From contig JBGSOV010000020.1 in NCBI GenBank assembly GCA_041738935.1, positions 57,467-121,466 on the forward strand: a DNA stretch of 64,000 nucleotides. The letters are read 5' to 3'. Below are positions 25,695 through 27,352 of the stretch, piece after piece (position 1 is the stretch's first letter; each line of letters opens with the position of its first letter). The translations under genes and the position numbers were made by a program. The notes beneath the pieces are model-generated. The model saw only the letters and a program-made list of their open reading frames with translations, made no database searches and had not been told where the DNA came from. Source of the DNA: Candidatus Altimarinota bacterium (GTDB lineage: Bacteria > Patescibacteriota > Gracilibacteria > CAIRYL01 > GCA-016699755).

Positions 25695-26273
25695 TTATGA
25701 TTCTTCCATTATCCGCTCGATCTCTTCCACGGATAGTTCGGGCTGGTTATTGATGGTCTGGATCTGATAATCGCAGTTTTTACCGCGTTCAATTTCCATA
25801 TCCATACTTTTGAGTCGCTCTTCAAGCTCGTCATCGGTTATCGGAGCACGCTTACGAATTCGCTCAATTAAGACCTCACGCGATGGTGGCAGAAGAAAAA
25901 ATGAAATGACTTCATCCCGAGATAATTGTTCTTCGATAGCTTCACACCCCTGAATATCAATATCACGGACGACAATCTTACCAGCTGCCAAATATGGCAG
26001 TACAGAAGATTTTTGTAGTCCATATCGCTCTTTACTGTGTACCCATGCCCATTCGAGAAATTCGTTATCGTGGATTTTTTTGTCAAATTCGTCCGAAGTA
26101 AAAAAATAATAATCTTTCTCGTTTTGTTCGTTCGGGCGTGGAAGACGCGTCGTTGATGAGACCGGAAAAATCCAATCTGGATGTCGCTCCTTGAGGATTT
26201 TAACAACTGTTCCCTTTCCGACGCCGGATGGTCCGACGATGAGGAGAAGCCGTCCATGAGAATTACTTGACAT
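25695..26273 (-). CDS. gmk: Guanylate kinase
   Basis: GPSGVGKGT, SSTTRLPR, DYYF, FLEWA, YG, DIDIQG, LLPPS. Confidence 0.96.
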   Translation of the reverse strand: MSSNSHGRLLLIVGPSGVGKGTVVKILKERHPDWIFPVSSTTRLPRPNEQNEKDYYFFTSDEFDKKIHDNEFLEWAWVHSKERYGLQKSSVLPYLAAGKIVVRDIDIQGCEAIEEQLSRDEVISFFLLPPSREVLIERIRKRAPITDDELEERLKSMDMEIERGKNCDYQIQTINNQPELSVEEIERIMEES

Positions 26274-26290
26274 AGTATTATATATGTTCT

Positions 26291-26959
26291 ATTATGCAAT
26301 GAATACCTGAGTCGTATTTCTGCATAAAGGACGTGACAAAAGGATAGAGGGAAACACTTGATTTTTCAACCCGCATCCGATAGAATGTCCTGAATACGAG
26401 CACAAAGCAAAAGTATTCGCCCTCAAAACCAAGAACCTTAAAACATCCGGCTTCCTACCAAAAAATCCGAAAAGTGGGGACAACGAGTCCTTGCGAGGAG
26501 AACATGCCAACATCAAGGTTTCGTTCTCCCTACTTTTCGATGGCCAACGACTAAGGCCGACCACCGAAAAGATCCCTCTATCTATTTGGGATCAAAACAA
26601 ACACAAAACAAACACAAAAAGTCTCGAAACGTACATTCACGTAGTTTCGAACACATCTCGTGTAAAAAAAACAAACACATACACGATGACCGTTGGAACC
26701 CCGGTCCAAAAAACAGGAGTTCCAAAGAACGGTAGGGAGCCTTGTGATAATCCGGAGTCGTCGGATATTCACATCAACTGCTCGTCAGTCACGCATTTCC
26801 TGGGTAGAACCTCTAAATTCCCCACACGGAAAGTGACTCATGAGCGAGAGAGTTATGACCCGAATGGAGCACCTCTGTACAGCGATATTTACCGCCTGAC
26901 ACGTGATCAAGTCTCCATTCGGGTTATTTCATTATTCAACCTGTTGTAAAAGAACAAAA
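26291..26959 (-). ncRNA. Candidate large structured noncoding RNA of unknown class
   Basis: More than 12 consecutive helices, a perfect 12-bp stem, long-range pairing, G-U wobbles that favour the minus strand, an upstream promoter, and no convincing ORF. Confidence 0.7.
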
Positions 26960-26965
26960 GAATAT

Positions 26966-26994
26966 AATTTAGAGTAAATTTATATTATTGTCAA
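26966..26994 (-). promoter_or_regulatory. Sigma70 promoter driving the structured RNA and possibly gmk
   Basis: TTGACA-17bp-TAAATT on the minus strand. Confidence 0.65.
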
Positions 26995-27025
26995 GTAGAT
27001 TTTCATTCGGGAATTTAAGATGTGC

Positions 27026-27352
27026 TTATGCAGCAGATTTTTTCGTTGGTGCTTCTGCTTTTACGGGAGCGCTTTTTTGCTGAGCATCTCCGGTAAACTT
27101 ATTCAGCAATCGGGCAATGCGAGATTTTTTGTGAGCAGCATTATTTTTGTGAATCAAATTCTTTTTGGCGCACGTATCAATGGATTTCTGTGCTTCATCA
27201 AAAAACTGACTGACTTTTTCGCCTTCACCAGCATCGCTCCATTTGACAAGGTTTTTGTAAAGTGAGCGCATCTTAGAAAGCTGAGCGTGGTTACGCACGC
27301 GAGTTTTGTCATTTTGACGCATTCTTTTTTTGGCGGAAGCAATAATCGGCAT
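27026..27352 (-). CDS. rpsT: 30S ribosomal protein S20
   Basis: MPIIASAKKRMRQN...IHKNNAAHKKSRIA. Confidence 0.95.
   Translation of the reverse strand: MPIIASAKKRMRQNDKTRVRNHAQLSKMRSLYKNLVKWSDAGEGEKVSQFFDEAQKSIDTCAKKNLIHKNNAAHKKSRIARLLNKFTGDAQQKSAPVKAEAPTKKSAA

Follow-up and report, generated by a model that had tools for sequence, protein, structure and literature searches.

A large structured RNA upstream of gmk in Peregrinibacteria-like bacteria, with a covarying loop-loop contact and a candidate conformational switch

Few large folded RNAs are known in bacteria beyond ribosomal RNA, RNase P RNA, transfer-messenger RNA (tmRNA) and the group I and group II introns, the others being a few enigmatic classes such as OLE, GOLLD, ROOL, HEARO and raiA, and each new large class has opened a line of work. 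RNAs such as OLE, GOLLD and ROOL span hundreds of nucleotides (nt), combine many covarying helices with conserved single-stranded stretches, belong to one lineage and have functions that are not evident from their sequence, with loop-loop contacts being of importance to them. Riboswitches and other leaders that switch through their P1 helix, which usually lie upstream of one gene, possess a P1 3' strand with a mutually exclusive downstream partner. In the kissing locks of the lysine riboswitch and the T-box, hairpins flanking the closing helix pair via 6-8 covarying loop nucleotides. Likewise, 6S RNA and ygfA of proteobacteria, whose gene order is kept over large distances, provide a precedent for a trans-acting RNA that forms the promoter-proximal part of the transcript of a protein-coding gene. 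Here we describe an uncatalogued RNA gene that resembles each of these systems in part. It occupies about 650-700 nt of the interval between rpsT and gmk, on the minus (gmk) strand, in a 64-kb stretch of DNA (henceforth the window) from a Candidatus Altimarinota genome (assembly GCA_041738935.1; henceforth G000).

The existence of this RNA is close to certain, and it very probably constitutes a new family that is absent from Rfam 15. Its overall layout comprises a 5' domain with the helices P2 and P3, a core of several helices that the long-range helix P1 closes, a contact between the loops of the hairpins K1 and K2, two U/G-rich linkers and a 3' domain. With more than 400 nt, several covarying domains and conserved unpaired stretches, it has the attributes by which ornate noncoding RNAs (ncRNAs) are recognized. 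Sequence searches show it to be conserved as a single-copy gene in many families belonging to a single class of tiny bacteria, a Peregrinibacteria-like, uncultured lineage with reduced genomes, where it is apparently a housekeeping RNA. Two of its features are both unusual and testable, namely a richly covarying loop-loop lock and two mutually exclusive helices that evolution has maintained. Together with its linkage to one gene of guanine-nucleotide metabolism, these make it a target for structure determination and a potential marker RNA for the lineage.

Conservation, strand and relationship to described RNAs

The first-pass annotation of the window, made from the sequence alone, had proposed a large structured minus-strand ncRNA in this interval, possibly of a new class or else a giant gmk leader; the element indeed proves to be conserved and covarying, and to belong to no Rfam family. 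Its relatives were sought in samples of genomes from the order, class and phylum, with E-values that come from a shortened calibration and are accordingly rough. A BLAST-type DNA search recovered it in all 7 genomes of the same family and in 1 of 12 genomes of the sister family. Within the order, a covariance model of the core (R1; 216 positions, 30 pairs) matched 13 of 20 genomes, once each; in the class sample it gave a single full-length match in each of 31 out of 151 genomes, and in the phylum sample no real match beyond G000. The sole match outside the class, in G184 (29.4 bits, E 0.009), was treated as chance because it lies inside a U-rich membrane-protein open reading frame (ORF) with no gmk nearby. 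The model R2, a sequence-only search without base pairs, built on the 3' block of 27 diverse sequences aligned with MAFFT, reached 56 of the 151 class genomes at E up to 0.01; by a stricter count, the near-full-length matches with E below 0.001 number about 41, and the partial ones, which are U-rich, are probably noise. Families f5, f20 and f24 of the class gave no match in the searched samples. An exact-pattern scan (28-nt-class) retrieved eight genome stretches, from metagenome-assembled genomes of Candidatus Peregrinibacteria, Peribacteria and Gracilibacteria, along with two stretches from metagenome contigs, one of which is identical to a genome locus.

Both strands of the interval fold better than expected. 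The minus strand of the 692-nt stretch folds at -230.8 kcal/mol, compared to -189.9 +/- 6.2 for its dinucleotide shuffles (z -6.64), and the plus strand attains a z of -9.61, with none of the 20 shuffles per strand doing as well as the native sequence. Since the plus-strand value is the stronger of the two, the z-score shows structure and cannot assign the strand by itself. Two other measures assign the RNA to the minus strand. At the annotated pairs of the 28-sequence core alignment G-U or U-G combinations fill 75 of 714 cells, as against 23 for A-C or C-A, in line with the strand call that had earlier been made from the same contrast. Similarly, the covariance model scores two loci at 131 and 86 bits in the forward orientation and at 23.5 and 27 bits in reverse. 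On this strand a sigma-70-type promoter, TTGACA-17-TAAATT, is present at 26966-26994 as predicted, with 10 of 12 consensus matches, and an equivalent promoter was seen in all eight of the family-f1 loci first examined. In G000 the part of the RNA between its putative transcription start and the point where the P1-closed core ends measures about 430 nt, and the span from promoter to gmk about 690 nt.

We consider it extremely improbable that the stretch is instead protein-coding, or that the functional transcript is the plus strand. The assertion that it holds no credible ORF stands in part: a 152-amino-acid ORF on the plus strand and a 90-amino-acid ORF on the minus strand do exist, and neither is intact in relatives or matches Pfam. 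The open frames of the relatives are short and in differing frames, and the antisense frame of G000 is split in G001 and G002, which belong to the same genus. Furthermore, similarity between loci extends over every frame on both strands, as conservation of nucleotides would give. In favor of a plus-strand transcript one could cite its stronger folding z and a promoter-like site, TTGACA-17-TATTAT, at 26267-26295 on that strand, with 11 of 12 consensus matches; against it stand the G-U versus A-C counts and the forward and reverse model scores. Both the coding gene and the plus-strand transcript were hence rejected, as the frames are not kept, Pfam offers no match and the strand evidence indicates minus. 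The plus-strand site itself shares nucleotides with the start codon of gmk and faces into the RNA gene in antisense orientation; its TTGACA derives from the start of gmk, ATG-TCA-A, which is common to many relatives.

At the gathering score, Rfam 15 has no match anywhere in the 64-kb window. A permissive scan of 26000-27300 gave eight matches, all microRNA or snoRNA noise with E-values of 0.72-8.2 and far below gathering, and in 15 diverse homologous loci the only matches were to tRNAs and, at E 0.01, to one snoRNA. Specifically, the models of RNase P RNA, tmRNA, the signal recognition particle (SRP) RNA, 6S RNA, OLE, GOLLD, ROOL, raiA, HEARO, the T-box and the group I and II introns recover nothing at the RNA. 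Thus, the resemblance to OLE, GOLLD and ROOL is not accompanied by a match to their models, and the RNA differs from them also in being single-copy, chromosomal and gmk-linked rather than associated with phage or tRNA islands or with oap genes (on such RNAs see PMC12286853). The same lack of homology by Rfam models, in addition to a different context and size, separates it from the lysine riboswitch and the T-box. The suggestion that it might be intron-derived finds no support, given its single copy, its kept gene neighborhood and the lack of an intron-model match. A search of full-text literature returned no description of this RNA; supplements and subscription journals were outside its scope, and an earlier mention there is possible. 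A term look-up in the paper on the first complete Peribacteria genomes (PMC4736985) gave no occurrence of 'non-coding', 'noncoding', 'intergenic' or 'guanylate'.

Could the element be a highly diverged SRP RNA, 6S RNA, RNase P RNA or tmRNA that the models miss? We regard this as very unlikely. The earlier observation that it bears no RNase P, tmRNA or SRP signature agrees with the model searches, and G000 has its genes for RNase P RNA and tmRNA at other places, C2:201214-201572 (188.9 bits) and C39:5152-5617 (120.3 bits) respectively. What speaks for such an identity is that the SRP RNA and 6S RNA slots look empty in G000. The SRP RNA models RF00169 and RF01854 have no match anywhere in this genome or in its relatives, and the 6S model RF00013 has none in G000; however, as the assembly is only 89.9% complete, the missing 6S match is no proof of absence. 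The protein side of the SRP appears to be missing as well. The Ffh M domain (PF02978) exceeds its cut-off in neither G000 (0/1), nor five relatives (0/5), nor the class (0/151) or phylum (0/151) samples, TIGR00959 gives only an 18-bit match in G000, and PF00448 is over its cut-off in none of five genomes, of which four consist of a single contig. No SRP-type GTPase was revealed either when G000 was scanned for motifs in six frames. Since neither Ffh nor FtsY was found, no SRP RNA is expected. Such an absence is already known from the literature on the Candidate Phyla Radiation (CPR), a passage in PMC8080830 describing two SRP subunits as absent in many CPR bacteria. Identity with SRP RNA was therefore rejected for want of both a model match and SRP proteins, and the RNase P RNA, tmRNA and 6S identities were rejected because the first two are encoded elsewhere and the 6S model is null in G000. 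Nor do the 15 loci show any weak but consistent Rfam match at the RNA. In addition to lacking model similarity to 6S RNA, the element is much larger and has several domains, a size and architecture that are, to our knowledge, unlike those of any 6S RNA.

Architecture, covariation and the K1-K2 contact

Covariation among homologs is seen in the core and in P2, and extends to a loop-loop contact. In the core alignment of 28 sequences and 30 pairs, standard pairs fill 89.6% of the cells versus 83.6 +/- 0.7 in shuffles, and 18 of the 30 pairs change on both sides versus 7.8 in shuffles, neither value being reached by any of 500 shuffles; these figures lean towards the structure, because the sequences come from related genomes and had been fitted to the model when they were aligned. 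As a control, sliding the partner by 1-3 columns brings the paired fraction down to 39-53%. The core is closed by the 8-bp long-range helix P1, formed by CUCCCUAC (26739-26732; region 1) and GUAGGGAG (26533-26526; region 2), both on the minus strand like all the features below. This helix had been proposed in the first-pass annotation together with five enclosed hairpins, all of which were recovered, as were the perfect 12-bp helix, the long irregular hairpin and the terminal hairpin that it had singled out. Compensatory changes in P1 are found in L054 (CUCUCUAC/GUAGAGAG), L053, L043 and L049.

Flanking P1 are two hairpins with complementary loops. K1 (26744-26772) sits just outside P1 and has the loop ACGACU (26756-26761), and K2 (26534-26570; CUUUUCGGUGG ... 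CCAUCGAAAAG), which stacks directly on the P1 3' strand, has the loop AGUCGU (26547-26552), predicted to kiss that of K1. As alignment helix 4, the stem of K2 has double-sided changes in 6 of 10 pairs. The loops are complementary in every lineage examined, and this is achieved through at least nine different sequence pairs: ACGACU/AGUCGU in the genus of G000, UCGACUC/GAGUCGA in most of the family, and UCGAUUC/GAAUCGA, CCAACC/GGUUGG, CCAACA/UGUUGG, CCGGCUU/AAGCCGG, CCGAUA/UAUCGG, GCCGACUA/UAGUCGGC and GACUUA/UAAGUC in other lineages. In a comparison of 12 representatives, with loops taken by alignment column, a locus's own loops form at least six Watson-Crick pairs in 11 of 12 cases, whereas combinations of loops from different loci do so in 29 of 132, many of these between relatives that share loops. 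The corresponding all-against-all statistic (mean pairing 6.04 for own and 5.33 for cross combinations) is noisy because of this sharing. The covariation would fit pairing of K1 with K2 within one molecule as well as between two.

Upstream of the core lies the 5' domain, preceded by a small hairpin (26942-26957) just past the predicted transcription start, the counterpart of which was seen by eye in relatives. P2 (26858-26924) consists of a 12-bp closing helix, in which ACCCGAAUGGAG (26924-26913) pairs perfectly with CUCCAUUCGGGU (26869-26858), around a small hairpin and a conserved motif, CAC(R)UG ... ACAGAGGUG (26900-26907 and 26870-26878; CAC...AGAGGUG). The sequence of the closing helix varies in nearly every lineage with retention of pairing: at least seven contiguous pairs are present in 19 of 23 loci, through 21 distinct strand sequences, as against 21% of the 506 combinations in which strands were paired across loci. 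P3, the long irregular hairpin at 26780-26845, is closed by GCUC/GAGC and has a conserved GAGC(G/A)G.

Within the core, the P4 hairpin (26690-26731) contains a near-invariant CGUUCUUUGG, and its two alignment helices (2 and 3) show double-sided change in 7 of 8 pairs. It is followed by a segment (26624-26686) made up of the U/G-rich stretch L1 (26664-26679) and a variable hairpin, P5 (26624-26650); in G000, L1 is the loop that a UCGUGUA/UACACGA stem closes. The second U/G-rich element, the single-stranded linker L2 (26593-26621; UUUGUnUUUGUUUU), has columns that are invariant across 27-28 sequences. Between L2 and K2 is P6 (26571-26593), a GAUCCC/GGGAUC hairpin with a conserved GGAGG on its 3' strand.

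Beyond the core and the variable hairpin P7 (26500-26526, within the segment 26467-26526) extends a 3' domain (26274-26443) with several motifs and predicted hairpins. These include a UUAAGGUUC motif (26433-26443), a covarying hairpin (26392-26419), a UAUCGGA motif (26374-26384), a UUGAAAAAUCAAG hairpin (26357-26369), the terminal UUAUGCA/UGCAUAA hairpin (26292-26327), which ends 18 nt 5' of the gmk ATG (26273), and an AU-rich box (26274-26296) immediately before that ATG. A loose UAAAGnnC-like pattern matches 26 of 33 loci 3' of the region 3 segment described below, although the match is weak in two. Four of these 26 loci have no gmk downstream, and they carry the 3'-domain motifs UAAAGnnC, AUUnUAUC and an A-rich stretch. 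The AU-rich box (CAUAAUAnAACAUAUAUAAUA-like) before the gmk ATG is conserved, and as a similar box is present in G009 with no gmk after it, the box may belong to the 3' end of the RNA and not to gmk.

Some loci carry additional DNA in or near the RNA. L002 (G001) and L038 (G015) have large lineage-specific insertions at the position of P7, between the P1 3' strand and gmk, that of G001 being AT-rich and about 200 nt long and the G015 spacer purine-rich and 716 nt long. In L027, from a metagenome contig, a long AT-rich insert 3' of the P1 3' strand places gmk 485 nt past the core, and three tandem AT-rich repeats of about 115 nt each separate the RNA from the nearest consensus promoter.

Alternative pairing of the P1 3' strand

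The strand CGAAAAGUAGGGAG(G), which furnishes the 3' side of both the base of K2 and P1, is complementary to a further element, region 3, with the consensus CCUCCCnnCUUUUCG, lying 25-230 nt downstream. In G000 region 3 is GUCCCCACUUUUCGG (26467-26481) and can replace region 1 as the partner of region 2; region 2 would switch together with the preceding CGAAAAG. In 22 of 33 loci the duplex of regions 2 and 3 outperforms shuffles, with a z no higher than -2. Where this strand has changed to GUAAGGAGU with ACUCCUCAC (L042, L045), or to GCAG with CUGC (L056, L059), region 3 tracks the change and region 1 does not. Having a second conserved partner for region 2, the RNA can adopt two mutually exclusive folds, and the comparative and folding analyses indicate that both, P1 and the helix of regions 2 and 3, are evolutionarily maintained.

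The partition function is sensitive to how much of the downstream sequence is included. When the core is folded alone, P1 has a probability above 0.5 in 30 of 33 loci; with 260 nt of downstream sequence added, this holds for 3 of 33, and region 2 is paired downstream at a probability above 0.5 in 24 of 33, in calculations that omit the K1-K2 contact, which would favor the P1 state. When the whole G000 stretch is folded, its minimum-free-energy structure has region 3 as the partner of region 2, while region 1 is bound by a region 4 (UGGUAGGAAGCC, 26449-26460), a segment complementary to region 1 that is present in a subset of genomes only. The latter pairing has undergone compensatory change (GGCU...AGCC in G000, GACU...AGUC in G001) and reaches a z of -2 or lower in just 8 of 33 loci, mainly those of genus g1 and G005. 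A four-segment attenuator was therefore rejected as a general feature of the family.

Relationship to gmk and possible roles

The gene that follows the RNA, gmk (25695-26273), encodes guanylate kinase. At 27 of 33 loci it directly follows the RNA in the same orientation, starting 146-716 nt past the core, and also in all four of the R2-only loci that were checked; this linkage spans many families with otherwise differing neighbors. At the remaining loci, with model scores of 129 (G009), 40 (G118), 52 (G085), 65 (G127), 131 (G012) and 58 bits (G036), the RNA is well retained in another setting, and region 3 is kept in five of the six. The gene that comes next is convergent in G009, G118 and G085; G127 has a divergent gmk and, downstream, a convergent ssb; and G012 and G036 have unrelated genes downstream. 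With a convergent next gene in G009, G127, G118 and G085, the RNA stands alone at these loci and cannot be a leader there.

Because it persists where no gene follows, a role in trans is the likelier one than that of a gmk leader only. We consider the chances about evenly balanced that the element is a stable trans-acting RNA or ribonucleoprotein (RNP) with a built-in conformational switch, encoded as the first gene of an RNA-gmk(-tRNA-Gln) unit. In such a scheme its own sigma-70-type promoter would drive minus-strand transcription of the RNA, together with gmk and, where present, tRNA-Gln, as the first gene of that unit, and the RNA would work mainly in trans after processing to a stable RNA or RNP. 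The compact P1 fold would form first, during transcription, and would then be kept or displaced depending on a lock by K1-K2, a ligand or a protein. Several points weigh against this reading. Gmk lies downstream on the same strand in most loci and a terminator-like hairpin separates the two in 1 of 33, so that, formally, the gmk transcript of most genomes has the RNA as its 5' part. The promoter of strict consensus, 207-270 nt 5' of the core, is found in just 11 of the 33 loci. The sequences behind the covariation figures, being from related genomes and aligned to the model itself, are not independent, and the pairing probabilities leave tertiary contacts out of account. As for expression, the sole datum is an assembled contig of 151 nt from one metatranscriptome run, 95-99% identical and covering only 26730-26877 of the 1701 nt compared, from an RNA library that may contain DNA and with strand and ends absent; it provides a weak hint. 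Coverage by the DNA runs X2 and X3 is confined to that side of the stretch on which rpsT lies, and the parts left uncovered are uninformative.

Many of the same facts could be read as pointing to a giant riboswitch-like cis leader of gmk, with a P1-closed sensor of about 430 nt. According to this explanation, unlocking of P1 would let region 3 capture the 3' strand of P1 and K2 and thereby change the expression of gmk and tRNA-Gln. The position of gmk across so many families, the scarcity of terminators between it and the RNA, and a P1 3' strand with a covarying and mutually exclusive downstream partner, the classic layout of a switch, all speak for it. However, the output module that such a leader requires was not encountered: among 33 loci with respect to terminators, and 27 with respect to switch-dependent occlusion of the start, no conventional expression platform emerged. 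For the region around the gmk start, the mean predicted accessibility is 0.46 in one fold and 0.44 in the other, and a difference above 0.15 occurs at only 1 of 27 loci, with about six of the 27 start codons placed approximately. On these grounds, namely one terminator-like hairpin in 33 loci and an unchanged accessibility, a riboswitch output was rejected. Moreover, the loss of the RNA where the regulated gene is not at hand, which served as a test for a riboswitch, was not seen in G009, G127, G118 or G085, where it is kept, usually with region 3. Finally, we know of no riboswitch near the size of a 430-nt sensor with a conserved 3' domain. Consequently we consider a cis leader possible but distinctly doubtful; the choice between a stand-alone ncRNA and a gmk leader has so far only been narrowed.

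A more elaborate form of the trans-acting RNA is rather improbable in our estimate. The element could serve as the RNA component of a molecular machine specific to the Peregrinibacteria-like lineage of CPR bacteria, either a ribozyme or an RNA-scaffolded or self-assembling particle, gated by the P1/region 3 switch and the K1-K2 lock and coupled through gmk and tRNA-Gln to the supply of guanine nucleotides. If so, such a machine might compensate for a function lost from these reduced genomes.

Some further features of the neighborhood may be mentioned. The upstream neighbor of the RNA in G000, rpsT (27026-27352, minus strand), holds this position in close relatives only (4 of 8 loci) and was not found at distant loci. 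Both gmk and rpsT lack a Shine-Dalgarno sequence. There are no tRNA genes in the window; in 8 of the 13 loci scanned, from different families (L030, L032, L034, L039, L040, L041, L043 and L046), a tRNA-Gln(CUG) gene lies directly 3' of gmk, amounting to a conserved RNA-gmk-tRNA-Gln order. In G127, gmk and its tRNA gene are together in the opposite orientation to the RNA.

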